The notes: generated by a model from the sequence alone, not told the origin. Counted from the first letter of the stretch, positions 4,799 through 38,952 are shown. The stretch is DNA of 64,000 nucleotides from a virus (IMGVR_UViG_3300035696_000005:32001-96000); one strand, 5' to 3'. Numbers and translations are program-made.

Positions 4799-5212
4799 AT
4801 GGGACGATATAGTCCGACTCAAAAAGAAGCGAAAAAGCGCTACTACATTAAATTTAAAGATGACCCCGTTTTTAAGGAAAAAAGAAAACGGCTTTGCTAT
4901 GCACATAGCAAAACGCCAAAAGGGCGTTTAGCTAGAGCGCGAAGAGCGGCTATCAGAAGAGGATTCACGTGGGAGATATCTCTGGAAGTCTATGCGAAAC
5001 TGCTTGAAGGCTCCTGTCACTATTGTGGTGGCAAATTAAATCAAGCCGGGGGCGGGTTAGACAGGAAAGACTCCGCTATTGGGTATACAATAGAAAATGT
5101 TGTCCCGTGCTGTGGAAACTGCAACAAACTGAAAAATAATTTTCTTACAGAAGATGAAGCGGTTCAACTAATAGGACTTCTGAAGATTATACGCGGTGGG
5201 AGGGTTTGGTAA
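4799..5212 (+). CDS. HNH-type endonuclease
   Basis: CHYC..GLDRKDSAIGYTIENVVPCCGNCNKLK; AT-rich relative to flanks. Confidence 0.8.
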   Translation: MGRYSPTQKEAKKRYYIKFKDDPVFKEKRKRLCYAHSKTPKGRLARARRAAIRRGFTWEISLEVYAKLLEGSCHYCGGKLNQAGGGLDRKDSAIGYTIENVVPCCGNCNKLKNNFLTEDEAVQLIGLLKIIRGGRVW

Positions 5213-5442
5213 TGTTTGCAGCAGGTTTTACTAAAAAAGCTGGCGTTGTCTCTTCCCTAAAGCGCGCCGTCGGACTCAAGCCCAGCGCTCACTCTCATAT
5301 GTCGCGTCTTGCGGATAAGGCACTGGAGAAGATGAATCTCCCTACCAGCCTTGTGGGAAGCACTCAGGGAAAAGCGCGTACCGCTCGTGGCGTTCACCAG
5401 CTAGAACGCCTCCAACACTTCTATAAGAGCAAAATGGCTTAA
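5212..5442 (+). CDS. Small basic protein with F-x-x-G-F-x-K-x-A leader
   Basis: MFAAGFTKKAG; ATG overlaps the HNH stop (TAATG). Confidence 0.7.
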   Translation: MFAAGFTKKAGVVSSLKRAVGLKPSAHSHMSRLADKALEKMNLPTSLVGSTQGKARTARGVHQLERLQHFYKSKMA

Positions 5443-5478
5443 GTTGACTTATTCTAAAGGTCAATCAATACTCAAGGG

Positions 5479-6405
5479 ATGAACCTGCCTTTTGCTAAGG
5501 GCTTAATCTGGCTCTATTTAGAGCAGCAAACCGACGAATTCATTGAACAGCAGTTTGATGAGATTACTCTTCCTTTGCCCGATCCTGACATCCTAGCGGA
5601 ACATAAGGAAGCAGCAGCCGCTCTTCCTTTGTCTCCTGCGATCTTAAAGCGTTTAGGTCATAAGAAATTCGAACAAACGGACTATCAAATCTTTCAAAAA
5701 ATAGGCTATGGAGAAGCTTATCTAAAGACAACTTGTTCATGTGATAAAGAAACAGGTCTTCAAGATCTTTGGAATGAGGTTCACCGCCTGCTTCGCAATC
5801 CAGTGGCGCGCACTGCTGTGGATGTGGGAATTCTTTGCAAGTACAGGTTTGAGGATCTTGTTCCGATGGTTTCAGGGACATTCCACGAAGTTCTCACGGA
5901 AAAGGGTTTAGAGCTATATCAAAAATATTTTTTTGATGCCGCTTCGATGACTAAACTTGACTGGAGAGCTTATCTCCGTATTTGTGCGGGGATTCCATAC
6001 CTTTATCTACGCATCCACACAGCCCTCACAAAGCCCAAGAAAGAAGCGATGCACTTAGCGGGGCTTCCGGCTAAGGCGGCCTTCGCCGACTTCTTAAAAA
6101 CCGTTCTGGCGACTGCTGAGTATAAGTTTGAATACTACTCACGCCACAATAACCAATGCTCGGACAATCAGGCAAGAGCCTGGGCTAAGATTGGTTTTGA
6201 CGCTGGTGTTAAATACGAGAAGTTCTCCGCAAGCGATGTAACAGACTTCTCCAAAGCTGTTCAAACTGAGTTCGAAAGCTTCAATGCCGAGATCCCTACG
6301 ATCTCCACAGACATGCTCAGTGAGGTGAAGCCTCCTGAGACTGAGGTGGAGAGTAAATCCAAAGCGCCTCCGGTTCCAGTGCTGGCTCCAGACACGGAAG
6401 TTTGA
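5479..6405 (+). CDS. Hypothetical protein upstream of terminase (small-terminase candidate by position only)
   Basis: 308-aa ORF; TTGACT-N17-AATACT upstream; no diagnostic motif. Confidence 0.6.
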   Translation: MNLPFAKGLIWLYLEQQTDEFIEQQFDEITLPLPDPDILAEHKEAAAALPLSPAILKRLGHKKFEQTDYQIFQKIGYGEAYLKTTCSCDKETGLQDLWNEVHRLLRNPVARTAVDVGILCKYRFEDLVPMVSGTFHEVLTEKGLELYQKYFFDAASMTKLDWRAYLRICAGIPYLYLRIHTALTKPKKEAMHLAGLPAKAAFADFLKTVLATAEYKFEYYSRHNNQCSDNQARAWAKIGFDAGVKYEKFSASDVTDFSKAVQTEFESFNAEIPTISTDMLSEVKPPETEVESKSKAPPVPVLAPDTEV

Positions 6406-6824
6406 TTAGCCCGAGACTTGATTAAATTGGTCGCACAATTTATGTGTGGCGAGTGTGCGCAATGTGCAAGTCCGACTATCCTCGTCCACATAAAAACAGG
6501 CAGTGTGTGCACACATGTGCAACTTTCAACTTTGCGTCACACACACTCTTGACGCTCCTAGGTATGCGTCAGCTCAAATAAAAACAAGGATGCAAAGCGC
6601 AATGTGTTGAATGTGCACTCCTAAGCAATAAGCGACTCCATACAAACTATTTCTATTATACACACTGCATTACCTATGATTTTCTTTTCCTGTAAGGACC
6701 TTTGCGTATTAGCCCGCACATTCCCACGTTTCCACAGTCGCAGCGCATTACGAAAATCGTTTGAGTAAAGCGCTCTTCCAATTTTTAGTTATACAAAGTT
6801 GGCTCGGTGTATAACTGTAAGTAT
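6406..6824. repeat. Non-coding region with iterated ATGTGC/GCACA motifs and inverted repeats
   Basis: GCGCAATGTG at 6457 and 6597; ATGTGCA at 6462, 6515, 6611; palindrome TGTGTGCACACA 6504-6515; IRs at 6550-6571 and 6787-6816. Confidence 0.6.
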
Positions 6825-8564
6825 ATGACCGATGAGATCGATGAAGAGCTAGCCTACCTCCACAGCATCGGCTCTGACATCACCCAGATCAACAAGGATC
6901 TCTCTGATAGCGCAAGGCTCAGGAAGCTTGTGAATAGCGCAGCCGTCGCTAAGATTCAAACTCTTTGGGGAAAGAACGGGGAATCCAAGCAACTGATCCG
7001 TGCTTCAAAGAGTGCGTGGATTCACCAGATGATTCACCTGGATGGAAAGAAGTTTGACTTTACTGGGCGTAATTATCTGATTCAGATCTACAACATGACT
7101 CACCCCCATAAGCTTCTAATGACGGGTCGTCAGGTTGAGAAATCCACCATGCTTGCTAACGAGTTCATTATCAACTCAGTGGTGATCCCTTACTTTAAAA
7201 GTCTTTATGTCTCTCCCTCTCACGATCAGACGCGCCAGTTCAGTAACGGTAAGCTCAAGCCCTGGATTGAAGCGAGTCCCATTATCAGTAAGTACTTTCA
7301 AAACTCTGTGGTCTCAAAGCAGGTCTTTGAAAAAGGTTTTGCTAACGGCTCTATGGGTTTCCTCAGGTCCGCCTTTTTAAACGCCGACCGTTGTCGTGGT
7401 ATCTCAGCTGACCAGGTCTTTGTCGACGAGCTTCAAAACGTCATCATCTCAAACCTACCTGTTATTCTTGAAGCTTTGTCTCACTCAAGTTACGGATGGA
7501 AGATCTTTGCAGGCACACCTCTTACACTTGAGAATACGATTCAACAATACTGGGAACTAGGTTCTCAATGTGAGTGGCTAGTTCCTTGCGAGCACCACAC
7601 TCCGAGATTCTGGAACTTCCTAGATGAGAAGTGCATTGGTAAGACTGGTCCCATCTGTGGCAAGTGCGGAAAACCAATCAATCCAGCTAATGGTAGGTGG
7701 ATCGCTTTCAGTAGTAACCGTGACATCATGGGTTTTAGAATCGCTCAGATCATGGTTCCTTGGATCTATCAGCACGCGCATAAGTGGAAAGAGTTTTTAT
7801 GGAAGTTTGAGAACTACAGCCAAGGACAGTTCAAAAACGAGTGTCTCGGCATTAGCTACGACTCCGCTAGTAAGCCCATTACCCGTTCTGAACTCATAGC
7901 CTGCTGCTCTTCCAAGCACGAGTATTATTACAACCCAACCCCGTGGACTCATAAGGTCGAGATCTTTGCAGGTATCGATTGGGGTGAGGGTTCAGACGGC
8001 ACTGAGCGTGGCGTAAAGGGAAAGATCAAAAACGCTTCCTACACCGTGCTTACGCTTGGAATGTATATCGATCAGAAGCACTTTTATATTTTCCACTACA
8101 GACGCTTCACAGGTAAGGAAGCTCTTCCTGGAAACTGTGTGAACGAGATTATCAAGATCCTAAAGGCATTTCGCGTTCGTTGTATCGGGGTAGACTGGGG
8201 ACATGGTTGGGGTGTGAACGAGCGCCTGGAGGAAGCCTTTGGTATTGAGCGTGTCATTAAGTTTCAACACGTAGGTAACCAGCGTCAGCGTAAAAAATAC
8301 GATGAGATCGGTCACAAGTTTCAGCTGGCTCGTAACGAAGTCATGACCGACTTCTTTATGGACATCAAAGATCATAAGATCATCTGGCCTGATTGGGAGC
8401 TTGTAAAAGATTACCTCTGCGACTTTGAGCACATCTACGCTGAATTCAACGAGGCAACCCGGCAAATGCGATATGATCATAAGGCATCTGAGCCAGATGA
8501 TGCGTGTCATGCAACAATTTATTTAAAGGAATGCGCTGATAATTATTACGGTAAAATACGATAG
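6825..8564 (+). CDS. terL: Terminase large subunit (GpA-like with Zn-binding insert)
   Basis: Walker A GRQVEKST, Walker B VFVDE, coupling motif AGTP, C-x-H..CGKCGKP insert, nuclease AGIDWG and PDDACHA; ATG 6825 preferred over GTG 6807. Confidence 0.9.
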   Translation: MTDEIDEELAYLHSIGSDITQINKDLSDSARLRKLVNSAAVAKIQTLWGKNGESKQLIRASKSAWIHQMIHLDGKKFDFTGRNYLIQIYNMTHPHKLLMTGRQVEKSTMLANEFIINSVVIPYFKSLYVSPSHDQTRQFSNGKLKPWIEASPIISKYFQNSVVSKQVFEKGFANGSMGFLRSAFLNADRCRGISADQVFVDELQNVIISNLPVILEALSHSSYGWKIFAGTPLTLENTIQQYWELGSQCEWLVPCEHHTPRFWNFLDEKCIGKTGPICGKCGKPINPANGRWIAFSSNRDIMGFRIAQIMVPWIYQHAHKWKEFLWKFENYSQGQFKNECLGISYDSASKPITRSELIACCSSKHEYYYNPTPWTHKVEIFAGIDWGEGSDGTERGVKGKIKNASYTVLTLGMYIDQKHFYIFHYRRFTGKEALPGNCVNEIIKILKAFRVRCIGVDWGHGWGVNERLEEAFGIERVIKFQHVGNQRQRKKYDEIGHKFQLARNEVMTDFFMDIKDHKIIWPDWELVKDYLCDFEHIYAEFNEATRQMRYDHKASEPDDACHATIYLKECADNYYGKIR

Positions 8565-9124: not shown

Positions 9125-9175
9125 ATAGGCATAATATTACACAGATAATTTCGTGTCAAACAAAAGTTCGATAGC

Positions 9176-9201
9176 TAAAAAAGTGGGGCGTAGCGCCCCA
9201 C
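9176..9201 (-). terminator. Intrinsic terminator
   Basis: GTGGGGCG/CGCCCCAC stem followed by T-tract on - strand. Confidence 0.75.
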
Positions 9202-9203
9202 CT

Positions 9204-9551: not shown

Positions 9552-9568
9552 AAGCCCTCCTTGTGGTT

Positions 9569-9600
9569 AAAAAAAGACGGGTGGCCCAATGCCACCCGCC
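9569..9600 (-). terminator. Intrinsic terminator
   Basis: GGCGGGTGGC/GCCACCCGTC stem then T7. Confidence 0.8.
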
Positions 9601-9605
9601 AAGCA

Positions 9606-19574: not shown

Positions 19575-19907
19575 ATGTTTATCCATGGATTTCAAAAACT
19601 TGCAGTCGCCGTCGTAACGCTTAGCCCTGAAAAGTACTACGAAATCGTTCGTGAGAAGGACCCTTATGTTGGGGCTCTTACAGGTGCGGCAGCAGGAGCT
19701 GCAGCTGGCGGTGCTAAGGGCGCTAAGGGTAAGAAAGCAAAGGCTGCCTTAGTTGGAGCGGGCATTGGTGCTGCAACTGGCGCAGCCACTGGCGGACTTG
19801 TTAGCAAAGGCTTAAAACACTATCAAGCACGCCGTGTTGAAAGATTGGCTCGTGAGCTAAGGCTGAGGGCAACTCCTGCACGATTTAGTTCCCACGACAA
19901 GGATTAG
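19575..19907 (+). CDS. Leader-bearing Gly-zipper protein
   Basis: MFIHGFQKLA; GALTGAAAGAAAGG and GAGIGAATGAATGG. Confidence 0.75.
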   Translation: MFIHGFQKLAVAVVTLSPEKYYEIVREKDPYVGALTGAAAGAAAGGAKGAKGKKAKAALVGAGIGAATGAATGGLVSKGLKHYQARRVERLARELRLRATPARFSSHDKD

Positions 19908-19966: not shown

Positions 19967-20842
19967 GTGGCTGAGTATCGAGATAAGGAAACATTAAACA
20001 CTTTTGCCAAAATTGCCGCAGATGAATATCTAGGCAGTAACAAAACTTCTCTTAACACGACGCTTAAGAAAATCGCCTCTCAAGAACACCTCACTCCCTT
20101 CCAAATTGAATACGTCGCATCAGAAGCCAACAAGGCTGTTTGGGGGAAACTCTTTTCTATGGATAAACAAGCAAGTTACGATTTCCCTCTGGCTGATTCT
20201 AAAGAGGTCCTAAAAGATCTGCAGGTAAGTAATTCACCAGGCGAGGTAAAGACTGCGGATCTAGACTACCTGAGTCCTCCGGTTTCCACCAAGATTGCTT
20301 CTTTTGATCCTCTCAAAGCTATGGGCTTTGTTGAGGAGAATATTGAAAAGAGCGCATCAGCTCGCAAGGAAGTTAAGAGACAACTCCAATACCGTCTTGA
20401 GAAAGTCTCGCATGCCAAAGAAGAACTAGAGCGTGAGCTTTACGTTGCGAACACGAAGATCGAGGAGCTTGAAACAAGTTTTGTAAAGACAGCTCGAAAC
20501 ATGATTCTGGAATATCCTTTTGAGCAGCGCGGTGAAGCGATGGATAAGATTGCCGAGTTTCTTCGTGCCTCAAGTGAAAAGCCCGACCAAAACCGAATGC
20601 TCATCAAAAAGCTCGCACACGTGATGAAGAGGCAGGGGCTTGTTAAAGAGGCCGACCTGAAAGCTCCCGAGCAGTACATCAGTGATAAACTTCCTTGCCG
20701 TGTTGTAAACGGACGACATCAACTCTCCGTTCTCGTGAAAACCATCATGGATCAATACGACTGGAGAGATACGCTTTTCCATCGCTATGAAATCGTAGAT
20801 AGCAGTCTGCCTACGATTAAGGAGAAGATCCGTGAGCTTTAG
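19967..20842 (+). CDS. Head core/internal protein
   Basis: Multiple hydrophobic-x-K-x-A sites (FAKIAA, LKKIAS, MDKQAS, IEKSAS); coiled coil; in head block. Confidence 0.65.
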   Translation: MAEYRDKETLNTFAKIAADEYLGSNKTSLNTTLKKIASQEHLTPFQIEYVASEANKAVWGKLFSMDKQASYDFPLADSKEVLKDLQVSNSPGEVKTADLDYLSPPVSTKIASFDPLKAMGFVEENIEKSASARKEVKRQLQYRLEKVSHAKEELERELYVANTKIEELETSFVKTARNMILEYPFEQRGEAMDKIAEFLRASSEKPDQNRMLIKKLAHVMKRQGLVKEADLKAPEQYISDKLPCRVVNGRHQLSVLVKTIMDQYDWRDTLFHRYEIVDSSLPTIKEKIREL

Positions 20843-21050
20843 AGATGGCTTCGATAAAACAGCAGGCATTGTCAGTGTAATTGGCAAAGGTGCCAAAATG
20901 CTTGGCAAGGGACTTACTCGCGCTGCAAGTGGCAACATCTCTAAGCCTCTGGGTCTAATGGATTATGCTGCTGCAGGTCTAACGGCTGCGGGTGCTGCAG
21001 GACAAGCAAAAGATATGTCTCAGCAGATGAGACAGGCTGCCATGAGGTAA
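20832..21050 (+). CDS. Leader-bearing small amphipathic protein
   Basis: MSFRDGFDKTAG; AAAGLTAAGAAG. Confidence 0.7.
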   Translation: MSFRDGFDKTAGIVSVIGKGAKMLGKGLTRAASGNISKPLGLMDYAAAGLTAAGAAGQAKDMSQQMRQAAMR

Positions 21051-22339: not shown

Positions 22340-24277
22340 GTGGACAAGCGATTGATTCTTCCTCAGAACATCGGGGATAGAAGGGACGTCTACTTCGTCA
22401 AAGAAGATAGGCAGTTTCTGCGCAAGCACGCATCAAGCTACCACCCGAAGATTGCTGAATATATCGAGAAGGCAAAGCCCATCCCGAACCTGATTCAGGT
22501 TCTGCTCACAGCCCTTGGCGCTTACGAGTTCTGGGGACAGAATGTAAACGGGGATCGCTTTAGGGTTCCTGCTCTCACTCACGAAGGCAGCGATTACGGC
22601 TACCAAACGTTTACTTCTAACGCTAACTATTTCACCCATCACGTGAATAAAGATCCAGCACTCGCTAAAGGGCAAGTGCTTCATGCTGTGTGGAACGAGG
22701 CTGGTAAGCGCGTTGAGCTTATCGTGGGAATTAATCCATCTCTTGATCCAGAAGGTGCCGCAATGGTGGATCGTGGAGATGATGTTACGTTCTCCATGGG
22801 AGCCAAAGTCCCCTTTGACGTTTGTTCAATCTGCCATCACAGAGCGAAAACTCGCGCCGAATACTGCGACTGCCTTCGCTATATGATGAATCAGATTGAT
22901 CCGATGTCCAACCAGCTGGTTGGAGCAGACAACCTCTTTCCTAAATTTTTCGATATTAGCCGCGTTTTGATTCCAGCCGATAAAACAGCCCATATGTGGA
23001 CGAAGGTGGCTTCTGCTCTCAATCCGTACAGAGCGCTTGGAAGTGCTCAACTTGCTGAACTTCCTGCGGGCACGCTCAATAACCCGGAATATCTTCTCAA
23101 GAAAGTAGCCGAGCAGCAGGAATTCGCTCGTGAGAAGCTAGGCACACAGAAGATCTCCGCAGTGAGTAAAAACGCCACGATCACAAAGCGGGTCGAGTTC
23201 ACGGCTTCTCCCAAGCTCGTCTCGCGGCTTCAGGAATCTGTCCCAACATCAAAAGCGCTACTTCAAGAAACATCCCCATCTCTTTCAGAAAAATCTTTTG
23301 AGGAGATGGCTAAGAATCATGTATCGCTTCAACAGCTTCTTTCGACAATGGCTGTTTTGGGGATGGAGCCCACACTAGAGGAGTCTGGCCATATCTTAAA
23401 GGCATTCGGTGCTGTGCCCGAACACCTCTCCTTGGGTCCTACACATTTTCATGAAGGCGTTTCCCGTAGGCTTCTTCCTTTGGTTTCCGAGCGCTCTTTT
23501 GCTCGTCCGGTACTTACAAGAAGGATCGTTGGATTAGCAAATAAACTGGATGCCGGAGATGCGGAGACAGTTAAAAAAGCTGAGGCAATCCAAGACATTA
23601 TGTTAAGAAAACCTCAAGACAAAGGAATGCACCCCGGCTATCTTGCGGGTCTAGCTGCAGCACTTTATGCACTCTTTGGTCCTCACGCTACTGGGTTGGC
23701 ACAGGGGATTGGTAAGGCAATGGCGGATTACCCGTACATCCTTCTTCCACTAGGAATGGGGGCTTTGGCTGGGTATAAAGTTCTTTCAACTCCGACGCAG
23801 ACTGGTTTTTATAATGTTGACGATTCTTTAGCCGGTCTCTACAATAAGAGCTACCAGAGTCGTTTTGCGGAAATGCAAGCGCGACCTGTTACGGTTATCA
23901 AAACCGGGGCTGCAAAAGCCGACCCAGAGTTGGCGAAAAAAATCTTCTATGGAGTTCCTGCGATCTATCTTGGATCGAAGGTTCTAAAAGCACGTGAAGA
24001 AAGTCATCCTGAAAAGCAGCCCGGTACAATTTCACATCTCATTGCTTCAAACCCAGAACTTCTCTCAGTTGGACTCATTGGTGAGCACCTTGCCGGACGA
24101 CCAGTTAGTCAAAGGGTTGGGAAGGCAATCGAGTCCGGAAAACGAATTATCAAATCAGCATCAATCCGAGATCTAGAATTTTTAGAGGCTGTTCCTGAAT
24201 CAGAAAGAGAACTGATTTGGGATGTCGCCATCCTTGATGCTGCAGATCGCATTAACAAGAAAGTGTTAGGAGGATGA
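22340..24277 (+). CDS. Prohead maturation protease (HK97/assemblin-like Ser protease with Zn finger) plus long C-terminal extension
   Basis: NVNGDRF, HHVNKDP, FSMGA, CSICHH..YCDCL, FFDISRVLIPAD; position ahead of scaffold and capsid genes. Confidence 0.85.
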   Translation: MDKRLILPQNIGDRRDVYFVKEDRQFLRKHASSYHPKIAEYIEKAKPIPNLIQVLLTALGAYEFWGQNVNGDRFRVPALTHEGSDYGYQTFTSNANYFTHHVNKDPALAKGQVLHAVWNEAGKRVELIVGINPSLDPEGAAMVDRGDDVTFSMGAKVPFDVCSICHHRAKTRAEYCDCLRYMMNQIDPMSNQLVGADNLFPKFFDISRVLIPADKTAHMWTKVASALNPYRALGSAQLAELPAGTLNNPEYLLKKVAEQQEFAREKLGTQKISAVSKNATITKRVEFTASPKLVSRLQESVPTSKALLQETSPSLSEKSFEEMAKNHVSLQQLLSTMAVLGMEPTLEESGHILKAFGAVPEHLSLGPTHFHEGVSRRLLPLVSERSFARPVLTRRIVGLANKLDAGDAETVKKAEAIQDIMLRKPQDKGMHPGYLAGLAAALYALFGPHATGLAQGIGKAMADYPYILLPLGMGALAGYKVLSTPTQTGFYNVDDSLAGLYNKSYQSRFAEMQARPVTVIKTGAAKADPELAKKIFYGVPAIYLGSKVLKAREESHPEKQPGTISHLIASNPELLSVGLIGEHLAGRPVSQRVGKAIESGKRIIKSASIRDLEFLEAVPESERELIWDVAILDAADRINKKVLGG

Positions 24278-24280: not shown

Positions 24281-24907
24281 ATGGCTACACTACAGGAATT
24301 AATGGCTGAGGTTCTTGGAGAGACCAATCAGGGTCAGGAAAAGACAGCTTCGGCATCCAAGGTTTCTTCGACAGCTGAAGTCGATCAAATGTTGGAAAAT
24401 TTGGGACTCCAAGGTGCAGAATCTGTCAAAACAGCGTCTGCTGCTGCGGAAAAGAAAAATGGAGGAAACATGAGCCTTTCTGATATCTACGAACAAATCA
24501 TGGGCGGAATCGCTCCGGAAGCTGGTCAGGAAAAGACTGCCGCTGCTGGCGACGGTGCTACTCAGACTACTGAAGGTGATGAGCAATCGACCGCATTCGG
24601 CGAACTTGTCGCTGAATACTTTGCTGAGATCGCTGAGCCTTACTACGAAAAAGTTGCTTCTGATCTTGAAACGGAAGCTGGCAAAGGCGAAACCCCGCTT
24701 CAACACGTTCAGACTGGTGGCTCAATGACCACTGCTCTTGGCAAGCCTGCTGAGCCTCGCCTTGAACAGAACCACAGCGCTTCTAGCGGTGCTGCTATCC
24801 ATGCTGCTGTTCAAAACAGCACTCCTTACGCTCTTCGTGAAGCTGCTCTGAAGAAGACGATTCTGAAGCGTATGGCTGCGGCTCCGGTTGGCAACATCGT
24901 TGACTAA
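24281..24907 (+). CDS. Scaffold/core protein
   Basis: Acidic, Ala-rich; GQEKTA twice, VKTASA, YEKVAS. Confidence 0.65.
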   Translation: MATLQELMAEVLGETNQGQEKTASASKVSSTAEVDQMLENLGLQGAESVKTASAAAEKKNGGNMSLSDIYEQIMGGIAPEAGQEKTAAAGDGATQTTEGDEQSTAFGELVAEYFAEIAEPYYEKVASDLETEAGKGETPLQHVQTGGSMTTALGKPAEPRLEQNHSASSGAAIHAAVQNSTPYALREAALKKTILKRMAAAPVGNIVD

Positions 24908-24935
24908 TTCAAAGAGTGAATGAAGGAGATTCCTA

Positions 24936-25715
24936 ATGGAAAAGAACATTTTTGACGAAATTGAAAAAATGACGGACGCTGAGAAGCAAGCGCTTCTCAA
25001 CACCCAATTCCCGGAAGAGCTTGAGAAAGAAGCTGCTGCTGAACTCGATACTTCTCTTCTTGCTGACGCTCTTTACAGCTACGGCTGGCTTCAAGCTCAA
25101 CGCGCTCTTGCAGACGTTGATGGTCTCGACAAAGTCGCTGCCGATGACCTCAAGGCTCATGAGCAAGCTGAAGAAGAGGTTGCTGAACAGATTGAGGCTT
25201 GCCTTCAGTCCCTCGGCACTCACGTAAATGAAGACGATGCTGAACTTCATAAAGAAGCTCAGGTCTGCGCTGCTTTGATCTTTGACGGCTTCAGTGACTG
25301 CATTGAACAGGGCTGCATGGATAAGGAAGCTGCTTCGGCTATGGCTGCTAAAGCTGGCAAGATGGCTATGAAAGGTCTTCACAAAATGAAGGCTGCTGGC
25401 AAGAAAGTCGGCAAGAAAGCCCTTGGACTGGCCAAAAAGCATGGTGGTAAGGCTGCACTTTTTGGTGGCGGTGCTGCTGCTGCAAAACTCCATTCCGCTA
25501 TGAGCAAAGAGTCTGGCGCTCTTACTCCGGAACAACTTGTTGAGATTGCTTCTGATGTCGCTCTTGAAAAGCAAGCTACCATTACTGTCATTGAAGATGG
25601 CATCAATAAGCTTGCTGCTAAGGGGGCTCACAAAGGTAAGAAGCTCAAGGACATGATGAAGAGTTCTAAGTCGAGCGCTTCGTCTGCTTCGTCTAAGTCG
25701 AGCAAGTCGAGCTAA
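24936..25715 (+). CDS. Scaffold/core protein
   Basis: LEKEAA, LDKVAA, LHKEAQ, MDKEAA, LEKQAT, INKLAA; Ser/Lys tail. Confidence 0.65.
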   Translation: MEKNIFDEIEKMTDAEKQALLNTQFPEELEKEAAAELDTSLLADALYSYGWLQAQRALADVDGLDKVAADDLKAHEQAEEEVAEQIEACLQSLGTHVNEDDAELHKEAQVCAALIFDGFSDCIEQGCMDKEAASAMAAKAGKMAMKGLHKMKAAGKKVGKKALGLAKKHGGKAALFGGGAAAAKLHSAMSKESGALTPEQLVEIASDVALEKQATITVIEDGINKLAAKGAHKGKKLKDMMKSSKSSASSASSKSSKSS

Positions 25716-25728
25716 GGAGTAATCAACT

Positions 25729-26211
25729 GTGCGTGTGAAGCCTCTACAAGAATTGCTGGATCAGGCAGATGCTCTCTGCAAAGGTACAGCCTTGTCTAAA
25801 GTAGCTTCCGCTCAAGAGTCTGAGGTTTCAGCTCTAGCGAATTTACTCGTTGGAGCTGAAACCGATGTCAAAGTTGATTACGATCCAGAAGCTTTTAAGC
25901 AGACTGAGATCGATAAGATTGCGGAGAGTTTAAACCGCGTTCAGACTGCATCTGAAATCGACGTGGTGCTGAAGTTGGCTGATTTTGAGAAGAAAGCCCA
26001 GGCAGAGGGATACACTCAAGAGCAGATCAATGAAGCCTTCTCGAAGATTGCTGCAGAGAAGATCGCTAAAAACATTCCGCTTTTGGCTGCAATGGGATTC
26101 GTTGGTTTCACGGGTGAGGATAAAAACTCTCCCACCAAGAAACCCGATAAGAAGAAGTCGCAGCGTCAGCTTCTCGGTCGTCTGGATCTTACAAAGAGCA
26201 TGGGGTATTAA
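25729..26211 (+). CDS. Scaffold/core protein
   Basis: LSKVAS, FEKKAQ, FSKIAA. Confidence 0.6.
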   Translation: MRVKPLQELLDQADALCKGTALSKVASAQESEVSALANLLVGAETDVKVDYDPEAFKQTEIDKIAESLNRVQTASEIDVVLKLADFEKKAQAEGYTQEQINEAFSKIAAEKIAKNIPLLAAMGFVGFTGEDKNSPTKKPDKKKSQRQLLGRLDLTKSMGY

Positions 26212-26213
26212 GC

Positions 26214-26570
26214 ATGGAAACAAAAGTGATCAGCCCCGCACAAATTAAGCTAGCTGGTGAGATGCTCAAGAAAGAGCACTCTGAGAGACTCAGACTTGAG
26301 AAAGTCGCTGCGGATTTCGAAAAGAAAGCCAAGGCAGAGAAGCTGGCATTTAGGGAAGTTGAACTAGGTATTACCGAACCCTATAAGAATTTCGATGAGT
26401 TCCAAAAGAAGGTTGCTTCTCTTTTGGATGACGACCTCGAAGTTTTGGAAAAGGCTCTTGATCGGGGCTATGGGTCTTCCCGACGTGTGGGCGAGCTCGC
26501 AGATGCGGGTGGAAAAGTAAACAATCCCTTCGAACACTTTGTTCGTACGGGTGAACTTGTAACTGAGTAA
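26214..26570 (+). CDS. Scaffold-like coiled-coil protein
   Basis: LEKVAA, FEKKAK, QKKVAS; two genes ahead of MCP. Confidence 0.6.
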   Translation: METKVISPAQIKLAGEMLKKEHSERLRLEKVAADFEKKAKAEKLAFREVELGITEPYKNFDEFQKKVASLLDDDLEVLEKALDRGYGSSRRVGELADAGGKVNNPFEHFVRTGELVTE

Positions 26571-27099: not shown

Positions 27100-28068
27100 A
27101 TGTCATTTAGTGAAGAGGCAGTCACATTTAATAACCTGTTTGTCGAGAGAATGGACACTCAAGATGGACAGGTTAAGACGGCTCAGGCAGGTCAAGCTTA
27201 TGTCCGGTCGTTCTTGCGTGAACACTCGTTCAGCCGCAAGATTCTACCGCCAGAAAGCGTTACCCGCGCTGATCTAACCCGTTCTACGCGCCACGATACT
27301 CTCATCAAGATCGTGGACTTTGAACATCCTTCCACTGCTGCTGCGGTTAACTTCCGCTCGGCTGGTCGTGAGCGTTACTTGCAGGGAACTCGCTATGCGG
27401 TTCCGTTCTTTAAGGTTGAGAGCGATCTCTTCGTTAAGAACGAAGCTGAATTGCTAGCCTACGAGTATCCAATCACGAAGGTGATCGAAGAGAACTCAAT
27501 CAAGGACATCATGTTTGTCGAGGACTCGACCTTTATTTCGGCTTCTGCTGGCGCTGTCAGCACGTCGGGTAAGTTCATTGCCTCTTCGGATACGTCGGTC
27601 TCTCGCACGAACTTGAACAAGCTGTTCAAGATGCTCGACAATGATAAGCTCCAGTCGATGGTTGTTCTGATGACCAACGTCGACTTCGACGACTGGCACG
27701 TTCAGCCTGCGACTGACGTCGGTTCTCCGTTGGCTACTGAGCTCACGATTAACGGCTACAAGTATGAGACAATCATGCGTCGCCGTGTGATCGTTACCAA
27801 TAAAGTGGATTTGCTCGCTCCGGGCTCCATTTATTGCTACACCGATCCTCAGTTCCTCGGAAACTTCTTCATCCTGAACGACGTCAAGTTCTGGATTAAG
27901 AAGGAAGCCGATAAGGTCTTCTGGAAGACCTGGGAATATGTTGGCGTGGGCATCGCTAACCTTCGCTCGATCGCTCAGATTACTCTGAACGTTCCTGCAA
28001 TCCCTGGCCCAGGCTACTCTGGAACCTTTGGTCCGAACTTGTTCGCACCTGGTTATCCGGTCGCCTAA
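27100..28068 (+). CDS. Major capsid protein (HK97 fold)
   Basis: 322 aa; LRE.SFSRKILPP, KIVDFE, ELLAY.YPITKVIEENSIKDI pattern; strong SD and strong terminator; follows protease-scaffold-decoration. Confidence 0.85.
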   Translation: MSFSEEAVTFNNLFVERMDTQDGQVKTAQAGQAYVRSFLREHSFSRKILPPESVTRADLTRSTRHDTLIKIVDFEHPSTAAAVNFRSAGRERYLQGTRYAVPFFKVESDLFVKNEAELLAYEYPITKVIEENSIKDIMFVEDSTFISASAGAVSTSGKFIASSDTSVSRTNLNKLFKMLDNDKLQSMVVLMTNVDFDDWHVQPATDVGSPLATELTINGYKYETIMRRRVIVTNKVDLLAPGSIYCYTDPQFLGNFFILNDVKFWIKKEADKVFWKTWEYVGVGIANLRSIAQITLNVPAIPGPGYSGTFGPNLFAPGYPVA

Positions 28069-29239: not shown

Positions 29240-29443
29240 ATGTTTTGCGATGGCTTTAAGAAAGTTGCATTTCAGGCTCCCAAGGCAGCTTCTAAAAGCC
29301 GCTATAACGTGCCTAAACGCCTCTCTAAGCCGCTTGCTGTGCAGGTGACGGGCAAAGCCCTAAGCAAGAATCCTTTTGCGGCGGGGGCAGATGGACAAGC
29401 GGTTGGAGCCATGTACGGTGGCAATACGCATGCGGGGTGGTAA
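29240..29443 (+). CDS. Leader-bearing small basic protein
   Basis: MFCDGFKKVAF. Confidence 0.7.
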   Translation: MFCDGFKKVAFQAPKAASKSRYNVPKRLSKPLAVQVTGKALSKNPFAAGADGQAVGAMYGGNTHAGW

Positions 29444-29599
29444 ATGGGCTTTACCAAAGGCTTTGAAAAGATAGCTGGTAAAAAAGAGAAGGAAAAAGAG
29501 AAACCGAAAGTCGAAGTTAAAAAGACTAGTCCTATCCGCCTACCTTCCAAGTACTATACCGGCATTATGGTCGATACGAACGACCCTCAGGACGGATAA
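29444..29599 (+). CDS. Leader-bearing 51-aa protein (not in ORF track)
   Basis: MGFTKGFEKIAGKKEKEKEKPK..; ATG directly after upstream TAA, stop overlaps the ligase ATG. Confidence 0.75.
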   Translation: MGFTKGFEKIAGKKEKEKEKPKVEVKKTSPIRLPSKYYTGIMVDTNDPQDG

Positions 29600-30789
29600 T
29601 GAGCTTTACTTCCGGATTTTCCAAGCATGCTGAATCTCTTGCCCCGAAGACCCATTACGGGACAAGGAGTATTCATAAGCTTGATCCGGAACATCCTGGT
29701 GAGGCTTGGTCTGCGAAAATTGACGGAGCCCATACCATCATCAAGTTTAAAGCAGGCAAGCTTCCTGATCTCTTCTCTCACCGTCAATCTAAACGAACTG
29801 GCGGGAAGATTGATTACACCGCTAAGCTTCCCAATATCAAACGAAAGGTCAACTTCGATGGGCAATTCAGGGGAGAAACGTATGCTGTCGACCCTTCTGG
29901 CAAAGCAGTTGAGCCTGAAGTCGTTACTTCTATCCTTAATCGTGGTGTTGATAACTCTCTACGCTTTCAAAAAGAGCACAGGTTAAAAACAAGAGTTGCT
30001 CTGATTAACGTCGACAAGTATCTGGGGAAAAGCTTACACAACGCTACCTTCGAAGAAAAAAGAAACGTCATGGAGCAAGTGGCTAAAATGAACCCAGATT
30101 TCACTTTACCTGCTTTGGCAACAACACCCAAGGCAAAGCTTAAGCTTAAAGAGCATGTTCTCTCTGGTGAACACCCACAATCCAGAGAGGGACTGATCGT
30201 ACACAGACTGGGTGAGGCTGGCTCGCCTTTTGCGAAAGCAAAGATCTTCAAAGAACATGACGTTTATGTAAGAGACATCTTCAAAGAAGAGAGCACAACA
30301 GGACGTAAACCCATGGCTGGTGGCTTTTATTATTCCTGGACACCTGATGGAGAAATTAAAGGTCGTGTCGGCAGCGGGTTTGACCATGCTGAAAAAGAAG
30401 ACATGCTCAAAAATCCAAACCGCTATATTGGTCTTGTGGCTCGCGTTCAGGCCACCAACGTTTCTAAGAATAAAGTTCTCTTGAAGCCCTCTTTCAAACA
30501 CTGGCACGTTGAGAAGAATATTGGACTAGAGAAGGCAGCCACCATCTTCGCCAAGCAATCGATCATCATCGACAAGACCCATGAACCCGATCGAGATAAG
30601 GCCAAGGAAGTTGCTCGTGGTTTTGCTGACAAGATTTACACCTCTCGTGGCACTAAAACTCAGTGGCGTTTTAGGCAAAGACCCCCGGGATTGTTCATCC
30701 CCGGAAGCTTTAGACATGCTAAAATTAAACCAGGCGTTTCAATCATCTATGGACAAATTGATGAGAAAAGGAAACGTAAGACTTCGTAA
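29599..30789 (+). CDS. ATP-dependent DNA ligase with leader and fused C-terminal domain
   Basis: MSFTSGFSKHA; motif I KIDG, III RGETY, IV EGLIV, V KAK, OB-fold GRVGSGF and LKPSF. Confidence 0.85.
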   Translation: MSFTSGFSKHAESLAPKTHYGTRSIHKLDPEHPGEAWSAKIDGAHTIIKFKAGKLPDLFSHRQSKRTGGKIDYTAKLPNIKRKVNFDGQFRGETYAVDPSGKAVEPEVVTSILNRGVDNSLRFQKEHRLKTRVALINVDKYLGKSLHNATFEEKRNVMEQVAKMNPDFTLPALATTPKAKLKLKEHVLSGEHPQSREGLIVHRLGEAGSPFAKAKIFKEHDVYVRDIFKEESTTGRKPMAGGFYYSWTPDGEIKGRVGSGFDHAEKEDMLKNPNRYIGLVARVQATNVSKNKVLLKPSFKHWHVEKNIGLEKAATIFAKQSIIIDKTHEPDRDKAKEVARGFADKIYTSRGTKTQWRFRQRPPGLFIPGSFRHAKIKPGVSIIYGQIDEKRKRKTS

Positions 30790-31059: not shown

Positions 31060-32014
31060 TGACGTAAATGATTTAGAATTTCCCATCGATAAGAAGACGT
31101 TTCCGCTTAACTTCAAACTCATCGATGTTATCCCTCTTTCGAGAGATCCTGGTAAGGTTCTGATCCGTTGGGAGATTGAGCAGACTAATCTTAATCTAGC
31201 TGACTTTGAATTCTACATCGACCGTGGGGATACGCCTGACCAGATTCCAGCGTTCCAACACGTTACGATCGATGGAAAAATTTGGCGCGATCATCCGTCA
31301 ATAACAACACACTCTGTGAACATGTCTCAGATCGGCGGACCTATTAGTGCGCTCGATTTCTACGAGTTCACGGATTATGCGCTTCACATCAAGAATCTAT
31401 ATAAGACTTACTACTATCGTGTTCGCATCAGAAGGATCTCTACCCAAGAAGAACTTGGAAGTGCTCCGATTACTTGGAAGGGTGACCTGGACTTAGAAGC
31501 ACTTTACGTAATCGATGAACATAACTTCATGTTAGATGACACCACAGGAGTTCCTGCGCTCATCTACAAGAGGAGAAGGAGCGGGGTTCTTTGTACTCAG
31601 TGTTTTGATGTGATTCAAAAAAAGAGGCTCGCTTCTCGCTGTCTGTACTGTTTTGGAACCAACTGGGAAGGTGGCTTTTATCAGCCCATTGACGCCTTTG
31701 TAGACATGAGCCCTCACCCGAAACAGGAACTCATCAGAGAATGGGGTGAAACTCAGCCCACTGAGACAGATATTCTTTTTACCAATTATCCGCTTCTTAG
31801 CCCAGGCGATATCGTTCGAGAGATTATGCAGAATAGGATGTGGCGGGTAACCCGAATCAGACCCACAGAAAAACTTCGCGTTCCGATGCTTCAATTTCTT
31901 CGCCTGATTGAAATCAACCCAGGTGATATTGAGTATAAGATTCCGATCGATCAGCACTTCATTGAGACAAAGATCCGCCAGTTTGAAGAATACAAAAAAC
32001 GTAGGGAATTTTAA
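31028..32014 (+). CDS. Head closure/neck protein
   Basis: N-terminal FN3-like part (YYYRVR); RRRSGVLCTQC..CLYCFGT.WEGGF and GDIVRE..RMWRV; start uncertain. Confidence 0.65.
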   Translation: MEKTPVGSLIDDVNDLEFPIDKKTFPLNFKLIDVIPLSRDPGKVLIRWEIEQTNLNLADFEFYIDRGDTPDQIPAFQHVTIDGKIWRDHPSITTHSVNMSQIGGPISALDFYEFTDYALHIKNLYKTYYYRVRIRRISTQEELGSAPITWKGDLDLEALYVIDEHNFMLDDTTGVPALIYKRRRSGVLCTQCFDVIQKKRLASRCLYCFGTNWEGGFYQPIDAFVDMSPHPKQELIREWGETQPTETDILFTNYPLLSPGDIVREIMQNRMWRVTRIRPTEKLRVPMLQFLRLIEINPGDIEYKIPIDQHFIETKIRQFEEYKKRREF

Positions 32015-32706
32015 TGTTCGTAAACGGCTTCACCAAAACAGCCCAAGTCAAAGTCATCAAAACACTTGGCAAAGGTGGAGAGGGAATCGCTCATCTTGTG
32101 AGACATCCAAAACACGGGTTAGTTGTGAGAAAGACTTACAACATCACGGGAAAGCTTTTTTCGAAGCCTTTGTTTGAAAAGAAGCTTGAGATCTTGCGTA
32201 AAGTAAAAAGCCCGCTTTTAGCTAAGTTCTACGGTCAGGAAGGTAATAAGCCCATTACCTACCATGAATACGTCCGCTTCAATAAAAAGCGTGCTTATCC
32301 CACTGTTGCTCGCGAAAAAGCAGTTAGACTCCTTAACAGGCAGGTAAGAGAAGCAACTGGCGTGGGAATCAAAGACCTGGCTAGCGACAACTTTGTTAAA
32401 GACAAACAGGGCAACTACAAGGCAATCGATTTCCTGATCGATGGTCCTTTGAGTCGCACTTCTCGCAGAGGCCAGCTAAGACATGTCGGAAAAGGCATCT
32501 ACGAGAAAGCAATGAAGGCTGGTCTTGGTAAGAAGCAAGCGGTTAACCTAAAGCGTTCTGCCATCATGAAGATGAGGGGTCTTTTTGATCAAAGCGCGAT
32601 CAAACATAAATCGCGCCGTGAGATTATGAGGAATGCACTCCTACCTAGGCATGAGCGTGATAAACTCGTTGAGAGGGCAACAAGACCCGGGGTAAATCAT
32701 GTTTAG
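32014..32706 (+). CDS. Minimal protein kinase-like enzyme with leader
   Basis: MFVNGFTKTA; Gly loop GKGGEG, VVRK, catalytic loop KDLASDN, DF(L). Confidence 0.8.
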   Translation: MFVNGFTKTAQVKVIKTLGKGGEGIAHLVRHPKHGLVVRKTYNITGKLFSKPLFEKKLEILRKVKSPLLAKFYGQEGNKPITYHEYVRFNKKRAYPTVAREKAVRLLNRQVREATGVGIKDLASDNFVKDKQGNYKAIDFLIDGPLSRTSRRGQLRHVGKGIYEKAMKAGLGKKQAVNLKRSAIMKMRGLFDQSAIKHKSRREIMRNALLPRHERDKLVERATRPGVNHV

Positions 32707-32896
32707 AGTCGGCTTCGAAAAAAGAGCGATGATTGGCCAAGGACCGGGCCAACGCCAAGTCAACCCAATTACTGCCCAGGATGCCTTAGGTGCTTCGAAA
32801 GCCGCGCCCTTTTCTAAGCCCATTTCCCGATTCGCTAGCGGGCATCACCCGCGTTTAGGGCTAAAAGCGATGTCAAAGGTGCGTCGTGGCGCTTAG
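32699..32896 (+). CDS. Leader-bearing small basic protein
   Basis: MFRVGFEKRAM. Confidence 0.7.
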   Translation: MFRVGFEKRAMIGQGPGQRQVNPITAQDALGASKAAPFSKPISRFASGHHPRLGLKAMSKVRRGA

Positions 32897-35746: not shown

Positions 35747-35757
35747 GGAGAATCTAA

Positions 35758-36102
35758 ATGGCTTTCGGTAAGGGATTTAAAAAGTCGACGGGATCTAAAG
35801 GGGTTGCTCTTAATCTAGCCACTTTGGGAATACCGAAGAAGGCAAGCGCGATGGGTGGTTTTCAGAAAGCAGCTAAAGTGCTTACAACGAAGGAAAGAAA
35901 AGAGCTTCCGAGTAGCGAACTCGCTAACCCCAAGAAAGAGGGAGAAGAGTCTGGCTCTTACCCGATCCCGGATAAGGCTCATGCTAGGAACGCCCTGGCT
36001 CGCGTTTCTCAGTTCGGAAGCCCTGCGATGAAGAAAAAAGTTCGAGCTAAAGTACACAAAGAGTTTCCGGAAATCGGAAAGTCGTCTGACAAGAGCTCGT
36101 AA
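35758..36102 (+). CDS. Leader-bearing protein with DUF6582-like domain
   Basis: MAFGKGFKKST and internal MGGFQKAA; LTTKERKELPSSE..YPIPDKAHARNALARV. Confidence 0.65.
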   Translation: MAFGKGFKKSTGSKGVALNLATLGIPKKASAMGGFQKAAKVLTTKERKELPSSELANPKKEGEESGSYPIPDKAHARNALARVSQFGSPAMKKKVRAKVHKEFPEIGKSSDKSS

Positions 36103-36122
36103 GTAATTAGGAGGATCGCTCA

Positions 36123-36842: not shown

Positions 36843-36852
36843 GGAGATTCAC

Positions 36853-37251
36853 GTGGCTTTTAAAAGTGGATTTGAAAAAGTCGCGGACTTCTTTAGTCAG
36901 ACAGCCCAGCTTGCAGCGAAGGCTGCGAAGCCTGCAGCATCAAAGCCAGGTGCAGCTATGAAATCCTTCAAAGCCCTGGCTGGATCTTCTCCAGACGTGA
37001 AGCGTGGTCCTGCTCTGAAGACTCCTGCTTCTAGCCACGATACGTTCATGAAGCAAACTAAAAGCCTGGCTTCAAAAGCGCCTGCCGCTAAACCTGCGGC
37101 AGCAGCTCCAGCGGCGGCAGCATCACATGCAGCCCCAGTGGTTGAAAAGCCCGCCCCAGGTAAACTTGGTCTAAGGCACGTTGTTGGGGCTGGGGTAGGC
37201 GGGGCTCTTGCCGGTCGTATGCTTAGCGGAAACAACCAGCAGCAGAGGTAA
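36853..37251 (+). CDS. Leader-bearing Ala/Lys-rich protein with C-terminal Gly zipper
   Basis: MAFKSGFEKVA; VVGAGVGGALAG. Confidence 0.75.
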   Translation: MAFKSGFEKVADFFSQTAQLAAKAAKPAASKPGAAMKSFKALAGSSPDVKRGPALKTPASSHDTFMKQTKSLASKAPAAKPAAAAPAAAASHAAPVVEKPAPGKLGLRHVVGAGVGGALAGRMLSGNNQQQR

Positions 37252-37254
37252 TTC

Positions 37255-37653
37255 ATGGCATTCGCAAAGGGGATTCAAAAATTAGCCGAGAAAAAACCCA
37301 GTGTTGAAACAATGAAACACAAGGGTGGACCCATCAAGACAGAAGGCAAAAAGCACCCGAAAGAAACAGGGCTCATGGAAGATGAGGGTGTGACCAAGCC
37401 CCGTGAAGTGAAGTCTCTTGCGGATCGTCTTAGAGCAAAAGATTCCAGCATGGATGACGAAAAGGCTTACCGCATTGCCTGGGATATTTACGAAAAGCAC
37501 ACTTCTGAGGGTAAGAAATACAAACCCATCCACGGGAAGCACCATAAGCCGTCAGACATTGAAGGCGAAAGGAAAAAGAAAAGTCCTTTTCATCCTCATG
37601 TTAAAGTAGGGTTTATCCATGGGCTTCAGCGCAGGCTTTCAAAAGATAGCTAA
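37255..37653 (+). CDS. Leader-bearing Lys/His-rich protein
   Basis: MAFAKGIQKLA. Confidence 0.7.
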   Translation: MAFAKGIQKLAEKKPSVETMKHKGGPIKTEGKKHPKETGLMEDEGVTKPREVKSLADRLRAKDSSMDDEKAYRIAWDIYEKHTSEGKKYKPIHGKHHKPSDIEGERKKKSPFHPHVKVGFIHGLQRRLSKDS

Positions 37654-38059
37654 CGAACATCACCACGCAGGAATGCTATCGCTCATGGTGCATCCTGGAG
37701 CGTCTGCAGTCTATTCCCACATGAAGGCTCCCAAGCACAAACAAAAGGAGCCAGAGAAGAATTACCTTAAGCACAGGCTTCATACGATGAAGGGTTGGGC
37801 TATTGGAGGCGCTGCGGGCGGCACTGCCGGAGCGGGGCTCGGACATGCCGCTGAAAGAGCCTACGCTCATGCCAGAGGAAAGCCAAAAATTAAGCTTAGG
37901 ATTCGGCTTCCAAAAACTCTGGCTAAGTCTATGGGTGAAAAGTCTGTACCGTTCTTTCTTGTTCCTGCCGCTATGGGCTCAATCGTCGGCAGCAACATAG
38001 GTCAGTACTACGGCTCAAGAAAAGGACACGAAGAAGTTACGGGGAGGAAAGCGAGATGA
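37619..38059 (+). CDS. Leader-bearing Gly-zipper protein
   Basis: MGFSAGFQKIA; GWAIGGAAGGTAGAGLG; AMGSIVGSNIG. Confidence 0.75.
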   Translation: MGFSAGFQKIANEHHHAGMLSLMVHPGASAVYSHMKAPKHKQKEPEKNYLKHRLHTMKGWAIGGAAGGTAGAGLGHAAERAYAHARGKPKIKLRIRLPKTLAKSMGEKSVPFFLVPAAMGSIVGSNIGQYYGSRKGHEEVTGRKAR

Positions 38060-38952
38060 GTTTTTCTCTGGGCTTCCTAAAAAAAGCCGACTCAGAAGAA
38101 GAGCATCCCGCAAGAAAAGCCTTTGGCATCGGCACTGGTTTGGGCGCTGCTGCCAATATCGCACACAATACTTACCTTGATCGAAAAGAAAAAAGAGTTC
38201 CACACGCTAGAACTGTCCACAAGTTTAGACGGAATCTAAAGCCTGGTGACATCATTCTGAGTGGTTCTACAGCAAGACACGCTGACGGGATCGCAGGAGA
38301 GGATCTCCCAAAGGTAGTTCAAAAACTACTCACTCGGTATAAGATCCCGTTAGATAAGACTCTCATCAATAACAGCACACTTCTTACCTCTGTAGGTGCT
38401 GGAGGCAAGTATCATGCTTCAGTTTATCTCGGTAAGAACAGGGTTGGCGAAATGTCCACAGACATGGGAGCGACTACAAGCTCTCTGAAAGAGCTTCTTG
38501 AGGGACAGAACGCAACTGCTTATCGCTTTACGGGCGCTGGGAAACGAGAGACCGGAAGCGCTGTGAGCTTTGCTAAACGCATGGCTAAAAAACATCACCC
38601 TTACAAGAGCGAACTCGGATCTGCGGCCATTGCCCTTGGAAACATAGCAACTCCTTTTGGATCTAAAGTATGCAGGAAAACTAAGAGCGGCATGGTTTGC
38701 AGTACCCTTCCTATACGTGCTTATCATAAGCGTCAATTTCCTAAAGGCGAGTGGACTTATCCCGGTGACATCAGAAAAGCAAAAGGACTGCATCCTGTTG
38801 TCAGGCGAGAATCCGTTAAGCTTCCGTTTGTATTACGTGCTAGAACCACTGCTGGGCAGGCTCTTAAAGGCGTTAAGTGGGGGCTGGGGGCTGCGGGGTT
38901 AGCAGCCGCTCACCACTATCTCAAGAATCGTCTGAAGCCTTCTGAGCGGTAA
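38056..38952 (+). CDS. Permuted NlpC/P60 (YiiX/YebB-like) cysteine hydrolase with leader
   Basis: MSFSLGFLKKA; LKPGDIIL, YHASVYLG (His), PY, VCSTL (Cys), YPGDI. Confidence 0.8.
   Translation: MSFSLGFLKKADSEEEHPARKAFGIGTGLGAAANIAHNTYLDRKEKRVPHARTVHKFRRNLKPGDIILSGSTARHADGIAGEDLPKVVQKLLTRYKIPLDKTLINNSTLLTSVGAGGKYHASVYLGKNRVGEMSTDMGATTSSLKELLEGQNATAYRFTGAGKRETGSAVSFAKRMAKKHHPYKSELGSAAIALGNIATPFGSKVCRKTKSGMVCSTLPIRAYHKRQFPKGEWTYPGDIRKAKGLHPVVRRESVKLPFVLRARTTAGQALKGVKWGLGAAGLAAAHHYLKNRLKPSER

Follow-up and report, generated by a model that had tools for sequence, protein, structure and literature searches.

Why should a ligase-like enzyme, a kinase-like protein and a series of small basic proteins, all encoded among the late genes of one phage, begin with the same few residues? 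The question is raised by a 64,000-nucleotide stretch, here called the window, that comprises bases 32,001-96,000 of the 182,359-bp IMG/VR record, rated complete, of an uncultured phage (IMGVR_UViG_3300035696_000005). In it, an initial annotation recognised 13 plus-strand open reading frames (ORFs) that open with the peptide F-x-x-G-[FI]-x-K-x-A, and proposed that this leader loads proteins into the prohead and is then cut off. Our analysis makes it rather probable that the leader is a capsid-targeting propeptide of the kind known from T4, with a K-x-A cut site, in a lineage that is not T4-like. The new part is the F-x-x-G-F-x-K-x-A leader itself, carried by 22 proteins of this genome, while the T4-type layout of a targeting peptide joined to a cut site is already known.

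A common N-terminus on unrelated late proteins

All 13 ORFs begin, where the initial annotation had placed them, with M-(x)-F-x-x-G-[FI]-x-K-x-A; twelve are canonical (counting the one at 37255, which has G-I) and the one at 35758 is a variant ending in K-S-T. Eleven use ATG and two GTG as start codon (20832 and 36853), a G-rich stretch resembling a Shine-Dalgarno sequence lies 5-12 nt ahead of most of them, and the genes are tightly packed, with spacings that range from 35-nt overlaps to 11-nt gaps. When F..G[FILMV].K was sought in the six frames of the window, 13 of the 19 matches fell at residue 2-3 of a plus-strand ORF, and a strict degenerate DNA pattern gave 11 matches, all on the plus strand, where 100 shuffles averaged 0.04. 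The excess holds at larger scale, since the full genome has 21 matches forward, none in reverse and none in the control, and five relatives searched whole have 11-15 strict matches each, almost all on one strand, with controls of 0. At the level of ORFs, the leader stands at the N-terminus of 22 products of the genome (in one case eight residues from the Met) and has one internal copy.

The leader is restricted to late genes: all 22 ORFs are encoded by the late strand, the replication strand has none, and the minus-strand blocks, which encode DNA polymerase and exonucleases, carry no copy, as the initial annotation had said of early proteins. Its remark that the codons differ between copies is also borne out, with TTT and TTC, all four GGN, AAA and AAG, and all four GCN codons found at conserved residues; because several codons occur at every conserved residue, selection acts on the peptide. 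We assembled a clade set of 54 non-redundant leader proteins, 51-773 aa long, in whose logo the first conserved Phe is invariant and conservation ends abruptly after the Ala.

Behind this modular leader the bodies are indeed unrelated. BLASTP groups none of the 22 with another, and the 54 clade proteins are distributed over 40 clusters. The 22 are for the most part small, with a high content of Gly, Ala, Lys or Pro, and they share one property: the pI of all 22 is at least 9.48 (median 10.3), a value that only 20-29% of other ORFs reach. The proposal that any fused protein could be loaded is overstated in this respect, every natural cargo being strongly basic. The enzyme labels given earlier to three bodies stand as leads (Table 1): the ligase by its PHROG match and K-I-D-G motif, the kinase by a fold match (TM 0.52-0.58 against Ser/Thr kinase models), and the NlpC/P60-type protein by its resemblance to YaeF/YiiX C92 amidases (TM 0.55). 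A PDB sequence search with the kinase-like body returned only marginal matches to the MEK1 N-lobe (E 0.025), and those with the protease, ligase and amidase bodies nothing usable.

Some further features of the tagged proteins deserve mention. Long Gly/Ala zipper-like segments occur in the proteins at 19575-19907, 37619-38059 and 38056-38952, and could be membrane-active after release. Outside the window, a 135-aa plus-strand protein (genome 166320-166727) has its leader inside the chain. F-V-E-G-F-K-K-V-A stands there at residue 57, immediately preceded by H-S-K-H-A and by an N-terminal domain with M-P-F-V-S-Q-A-Q-R-G-L-F-Y; cutting at the two motifs might divide this protein into two parts, and the next gene has a normal leader. 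The leader was also compared with the class III signal peptide of type IV prepilins, in which G-F, cleaved between the two residues, precedes a hydrophobic segment some 20 residues long and a Glu stands at +5. In our proteins G-F is followed by x-K-x-A and by polar or basic sequence, with no hydrophobic helix and no Glu at +5, and this candidate was ruled out.

The same site in head proteins and in the prohead protease

The plus-strand blocks of the window encode a baseplate hub/spike-like protein, an HNH endonuclease, the large terminase, a head maturation protease, the major capsid protein and tail-like genes. By megablast, 20 kb of the window found no match among GenBank phages, so that there is no close GenBank phage at the DNA level, and Pfam gave no solid match for any head protein or cargo. 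Coordinates of the features are collected in Table 1.

The second half of the leader, G-phi-x-K-x-A (phi, hydrophobic), is not specific to leaders but recurs throughout the acidic scaffold-like proteins of the head module (pI 4.6-5.6). Measured against composition-preserving shuffles of each protein, phi-x-K-x-A is several-fold enriched in individual head proteins (Table 1). Its density per 1000 aa is 14.7 in the head module, 0.42 in tail and baseplate proteins and 1.47 in minus-strand proteins, and the reversed motif, used as a control, reaches 3.6 in the head module. In alignments with orthologs (34-67% identity) the motifs stay at conserved columns while their flanks drift. A logo built from 211 non-redundant internal sites has G/A, L/M/F, E/D/S, K, V/I/E/L, A, then A/S, with A or S following the Ala at 44% of sites, and it matches the G-F-x-K-[VTI]-A of the leader; there is no conserved Phe at the place where leaders have their first one. 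The match between the two logos means that the leader is one copy of a general head-module site preceded by an N-terminal F-x-x.

Table 1. Leader ORFs and other features of the late region (positions counted from the first base of the window; obs/exp, phi-x-K-x-A sites observed and expected from shuffles)
Feature	Coordinates	Strand	Length (aa)	N-terminus or motif	Remarks
Leader ORF	5212..5442	+	76	MFAAGFTKKA	pI 11.2
Leader ORF	19575..19907	+	110	MFIHGFQKLA	Gly/Ala-rich; first gene of head operon; leader kept in orthologs of 8/8 relatives
Leader ORF	20832..21050	+	72	SFRDGFDKTA	GTG start
Leader ORF	29240..29443	+	67	MFCDGFKKVA	
Leader ORF	29444..29599	+	51	MGFTKGFEKIA	Lys/Glu-rich
Leader + ATP-dependent ligase-like body	29599..30789	+	396		K-I-D-G motif I; PHROG DNA ligase family, 2e-11; weak OB-domain match
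Leader + Ser/Thr protein-kinase-like body	32014..32706	+	230		Fold match begins at residue 9-10
Leader ORF	32699..32896	+	65	MFRVGFEKRA	pI 12
Variant leader ORF	35758..36102	+	114	MAFGKGFKKST	Canonical G-F-Q-K-A-A at residues 33-38, directly before phrog_16160 domain (41-105)
Leader ORF	36853..37251	+	132	AFKSGFEKVA	GTG start; Ala/Lys/Pro-rich
Leader ORF	37255..37653	+	132	MAFAKGIQKLA	Ile variant
Leader ORF	37619..38059	+	146	MGFSAGFQKIA	Gly-rich segments
Leader + permuted papain-like body (YaeF/YiiX C92, NlpC/P60 superfamily)	38056..38952	+	298		Lead only
Scaffold-like protein upstream of window			375	phi-x-K-x-A	obs/exp 13/1.6
Scaffold-like protein	19967..20842	+	291	phi-x-K-x-A	obs/exp 8/0.8; sites conserved in orthologs (45-67% identity)
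Conserved protein between second head-operon leader gene and protease	21054..22337	+	427	GFTKGFMDKL, then LEKVSA	Degenerate leader; a hydrophobic transmembrane-like segment follows
Prohead protease	22340..24277	+	645	phi-x-K-x-A	obs/exp 5/1.3; PHROG head maturation protease match; gp21/assemblin-fold domain at residues 32-225, then a long C-terminal extension
Four acidic helical scaffold-like proteins	24281..26570	+	208, 259, 160, 118	phi-x-K-x-A-[AS]	Conserved islands of the motif
Acidic protein	at 24936			phi-x-K-x-A	obs/exp 7/1.3; within 24281..26570
Acidic protein	at 25729			phi-x-K-x-A	obs/exp 5/0.7; within 24281..26570
Major capsid protein	27100..28068	+	322	Q-V-K-T-A at residues 24-28	K-x-A there common to most distant relatives
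Portal candidate	2208..4796	+	862	phi-x-K-x-A	By size and position only; obs/exp 9/2.5, clustered at residues 491-597
HNH/endonuclease VII-like gene	4799-5212				PHROG 1e-15; between portal candidate and first leader gene, near terminase
Terminase large subunit	6807..8564	+			Locates region in packaging and head module

The head maturation protease carries the site at positions that suggest self-processing. Its AF2 model (pLDDT 78.6) has disordered residues 1-31 and a fold at 36-225, and in an exhaustive structure comparison its top match was T4 gp21 (5jbl; Z 10.1 over 129 residues, rmsd 2.9 A), next to the herpesvirus proteases of VZV (1vzv, Z 9.7), HCMV (Z 7.0) and KSHV (Z 6.2); Foldseek gave weak herpes protease matches only, the best to the pseudorabies protease (E 0.065). 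An alignment of 38 protease sequences shows H100, H101, N103, S152-M-G, D160, C162, C165 and C176 to be invariant. In the same 38 homologs L27, K29 and K222 are also invariant and A31 and A224 nearly so, and the two sites to which these residues belong, L27-x-K29-x-A31-S and W220-x-K222-x-A224-S, bracket the catalytic domain.

The first 250 residues of the protease have 570 homologs in a metagenome protein collection (E < 1e-5). Some are interrupted by inteins, among them proteins 1000-1100 aa long (P0011, P0021 and P0087) with intein/LAGLIDADG Pfam domains. The cluster of C162, C165 and C176, together with a nearly invariant H178, looks like a zinc-binding insert.

Two other head proteins carry related sequences. 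The degenerate leader of the 427-aa protein upstream of the protease gene is replaced in its orthologs by M-S-K-L-R-K-Q-A or M-K-K-V-A, and the capsid protein has a K-x-A near its N-terminus (Table 1). The portal candidate was compared by BLASTP with a Bxz1-type portal, giving an E of 0.36, and its identity as a portal is not confirmed.

Relatives and the depth of the code

We found twelve viral contigs whose capsid protein shares 77-90% identity with that of the window phage, and each has the leader on several late ORFs. The two leader genes at the start of the head operon are kept in all relatives, and six cargos, the ligase and the kinase among them, lack a homolog within the syntenic 10 kb on either side of the relatives' capsid gene; the tagged set is thus partly core and partly variable. 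In a scan of the whole collection for the leader, among the matches listed (at least 80), the contigs with two or more that could be matched were known members of the clade, and the rest looked like chance singletons.

Judged by the capsid protein, the closest cultured phages are Vibrio phages D69, D181 and D148 (31.5% identity), Salmonella phage Arash (30%) and Bacillus phage G (22%). The head-module proteins of D69 and Arash are rich in the motif (nine copies in one D69 protein of 269 aa), and their capsid proteins have L-[TV]-K-E-A near residue 25-30, aligned with the Q-V-K-T-A of the window phage. Basic proteins of D69 start with M-D-K-V-A, M-F-K-S-A-S or M-P-K-K-A-S. The last of these begins a D69 protein of 1527 aa; in the window phage a 2033-aa late protein (genome 22467-29475, outside the window) is directly followed by two leader proteins, and both of these very large products may be giant virion or ejected proteins.

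At 74 more distant viral loci, other N-terminal leaders end in K-x-A, the motif occurring within residues 1-16 of 120 of the 1279 plus-strand ORFs and the reversed motif in 20. The forms include MNHF-x-x-GF-x-DEL-x-K-x-A, W-N-S-F-F-R-E-M-E-K-V-A, M-I-P-L-N-G-F-E-K-D-A and a plain M-N-K-E-A. In the MNHF (sister) clade, F-x-x-G-F forms a separate block three residues ahead of L-x-K-x-A, and this separation argues that the aromatic block has a role of its own. One distant sub-branch (L026, L028, L031-L033, L055, L082) has Q-L-[ST]-E-A in place of K-x-A at the capsid N-terminus, which is the T4-type pattern of L-x-E cut before an Ala, yet K-x-A leaders persist at the N-termini of small proteins encoded there. 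In Mycobacterium phage LinStu (Bxz1-type), the same protease domain forms the N-terminus of a 1286-aa protein, gp97, encoded just upstream of the capsid gene.

A putative head-targeting propeptide and its counterparts

These observations suggest a short N-terminal propeptide in two parts. The C-terminal part, G-F-x-K-x-A, would be one recognition site of the phage's own prohead protease, which would use the same site for fragmenting the scaffold proteins and for its own trimming, and the N-terminal part, M-(x)-F-x-x, would extend that site. Late in infection, about 22 unrelated and strongly basic proteins bearing the tag would be built into the prohead interior alongside the scaffold; the protease would then remove the tag, most likely after the Ala and possibly after the Lys, the basic bodies would stay with the packaged DNA, and some if not all of them, with the ligase-, kinase- and amidase-like enzymes in their number, would enter the host with it. 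Cleavage, localisation in the head and ejection are proposed here by analogy; prohead loading and ejection with the DNA follow the T4 model, with indirect support from the late strand and the basic pI of the tagged proteins.

The release by a protease that the initial annotation had proposed gains comparative support from the shared logo, the conserved columns and the sites bracketing a gp21/assemblin-fold protease, and the alternate spacing of the conserved phi, K and A would fit a peptide read in extended form in the protease cleft. The exact cut position that it had given, after K-x-A, is less secure, as the cut could be after the Lys, which would match the T4 register. From the sequence we consider a scissile bond after the Ala most likely, because a small residue follows and because assemblin cuts after Ala.

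Several observations weigh against a cleaved targeting peptide. In the structure model, the K-x-A of the capsid protein sits at the start of a confidently predicted helix and not in a disordered stretch, and the second protease site (220-224) falls in the last predicted strand. The F-x-x-G-F extension was not found in the cultured relatives D69 and Arash, so the targeting role of this part gains no independent support from them. Bxz1-type mycobacteriophages share the protease domain and show no K-x-A enrichment. The virion proteome of Arash, which at 116 proteins, with ribonucleotide reductase and other enzymes among them, is not a clean virion list, gives no cleavage sites (PMC10585845), and the multi-omics paper on phage G reports no N-termini.

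Other explanations have to be weighed against the same data. The leader might be only a processing site, which for instance keeps its cargo inactive until maturation or gives it a defined N-terminus, with entry into the head left to charge, DNA binding or affinity for the acidic scaffold. The conserved core of the leader is equal to the general site logo, the minimal N-termini of the cultured relatives (M-D-K-V-A, M-F-K-S-A-S) are too short to hold a separate address, and the cargos are all basic and the scaffold proteins acidic. We nevertheless consider this explanation unlikely, since the first Phe, invariant in leaders, has no counterpart at internal sites, the sister clade keeps F-x-x-G-F as a block apart from L-x-K-x-A, and the equivalent N-terminal residues in T4 carry targeting (PMC9026906). 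Slightly less likely again is that K-x-A is a binding motif, an uncleaved anchor, present in many copies on the scaffold proteins and once on each cargo, that would bind the HK97-fold shell from within, as in encapsulins, or else a scaffold partner. There are many position-conserved copies per scaffold protein, several of them in predicted helices or strands and not in linkers, and encapsulin loading peptides are also short motifs of Gly, hydrophobic residues and Lys. Yet a small residue follows the Ala at 44% of sites, the conservation of alternate positions fits an extended substrate, the scaffold must leave the head, and cutting at sites every 10-60 residues would give small fragments. Moreover, the invariant copies at both ends of the protease fold resemble the self-processing sites of T4 gp21 and herpesvirus assemblin (PMC9026906).

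We regard as improbable a tag with a role outside the capsid, be it a membrane, secretion or tail-lumen address or a mark for some other late factor, for instance one that modifies the invariant Lys. Several cargos have Gly/Ala-rich zipper-like segments and some leader genes adjoin tail-fibre-like genes outside the head module, but no hydrophobic core follows the tag, there is no Glu at +5 after G-F, and the motif of the tag is shared specifically with head-assembly proteins. Finally, we reject chance, or a paralogous family whose bodies have diverged beyond recognition, as very improbable. Homology is hard to judge where many of the bodies are low-complexity basic peptides, but only 0.04 matches are expected by chance, the bodies include three different enzyme folds, and only the tag positions are conserved, with the codons and the x positions free to vary.

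A broader proposal, and one that we put forward as doubtful, is that G-phi-x-K-x-A serves as a two-purpose anchor-and-release code over a large and almost wholly uncultured phage group, the one represented by the 570 protease homologs. The motif would dock the scaffold proteins by many copies, and the cargo by a single copy strengthened by F-x-x, in the prohead, and would then be cut. Were this so, a 9-residue peptide would suffice to load a chosen protein, and the proteins that carry the tag in nature (ligase, kinase, amidase and the small basic ones) would form an injected arsenal.

If our preferred reading, a cleaved capsid-targeting propeptide, is correct, the combination of address label and cut site is not peculiar to T4-like phages, and filling the head is a recurring route of delivery, here with a Lys-x-Ala code and a tagged set about five times larger than that of T4. 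A large and so far unstudied branch of the gp21/assemblin-fold proteases would gain a defined cleavage rule, and a simple sequence rule would serve to list, in hundreds of uncultured phages, the proteins that are probably internal or injected. The leader would also be a candidate tag, and a very short one, with which foreign proteins could be packaged into capsids. If injected, the leader-tagged ligase-like enzyme and kinase would point to steps of host takeover or of genome repair that precede all phage gene expression.

Among known systems, the cargo-loading peptides of encapsulins are like the proposed tag in being short, portable peptides that place unrelated cargo in an HK97-fold shell. 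They differ in that they are mostly C-terminal, remain uncleaved and bind the shell protein directly, while the tag described here is N-terminal. The herpesvirus assemblins (UL26-type) have a similar fold, with a catalytic domain bounded by its own site and followed by a long extension. The release and maturation sites of herpesviruses follow the consensus (V/L/I)-x-A, cut before S, so that Ala stands before the cut and Ser or Ala after it, which would also be the case here if the cut is after the Ala; the register differs in that the window phage has an invariant Lys two residues before the Ala. We know of no leader-tagged cargo set in herpesviruses. In phiKZ and SPN3US, again large phages, many head proteins, inner-body and ejection proteins among them, have propeptides cut at a short motif by a protease of the gp21 type (PMC9026906), but these propeptides are long and variable and not one shared tag, and their S/A/G-x-E sites are cut after the Glu.

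The closest parallel is the capsid-targeting sequence (CTS) of T4. The first 10 residues of IPIII suffice for packaging, the targeting function maps to the N-terminal residues and processing to the terminal L/I-x-E, which is the gp21 cut site, and T4-related phages have varied basic proteins with CTS-like leaders (PMC9026906). The N-terminal sequence of gp21 fits its own cleavage logo, and gp21 is also processed at its C-terminus (PMC9026906). As in IPI, IPII, IPIII and Alt of T4, a peptide of about 10 residues stands here at the N-terminus of basic proteins that are unrelated to one another and differ from relative to relative. Its presumed targeting residues come first and the protease's cut motif after them, although cutting, packaging and ejection are drawn here from the analogy. 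The same motif is found, in both cases, in scaffold or core proteins and at the ends of a gp21-fold protease. The differences are just as clear, since the two leaders have no sequence similarity (MKTYQEFIAE in T4, F-x-x-G-F-x-K-x-A here), the site is L/I-x-E in T4 and a phi-x-K-x-A with no Glu here, and the tagged set comprises 4 proteins in T4 and 22 here, including ligase-, kinase- and amidase-like enzymes. Nor is the lineage T4-like, its capsid protein being nearest to those of Vibrio phage D69, Salmonella phage Arash and Bacillus phage G.

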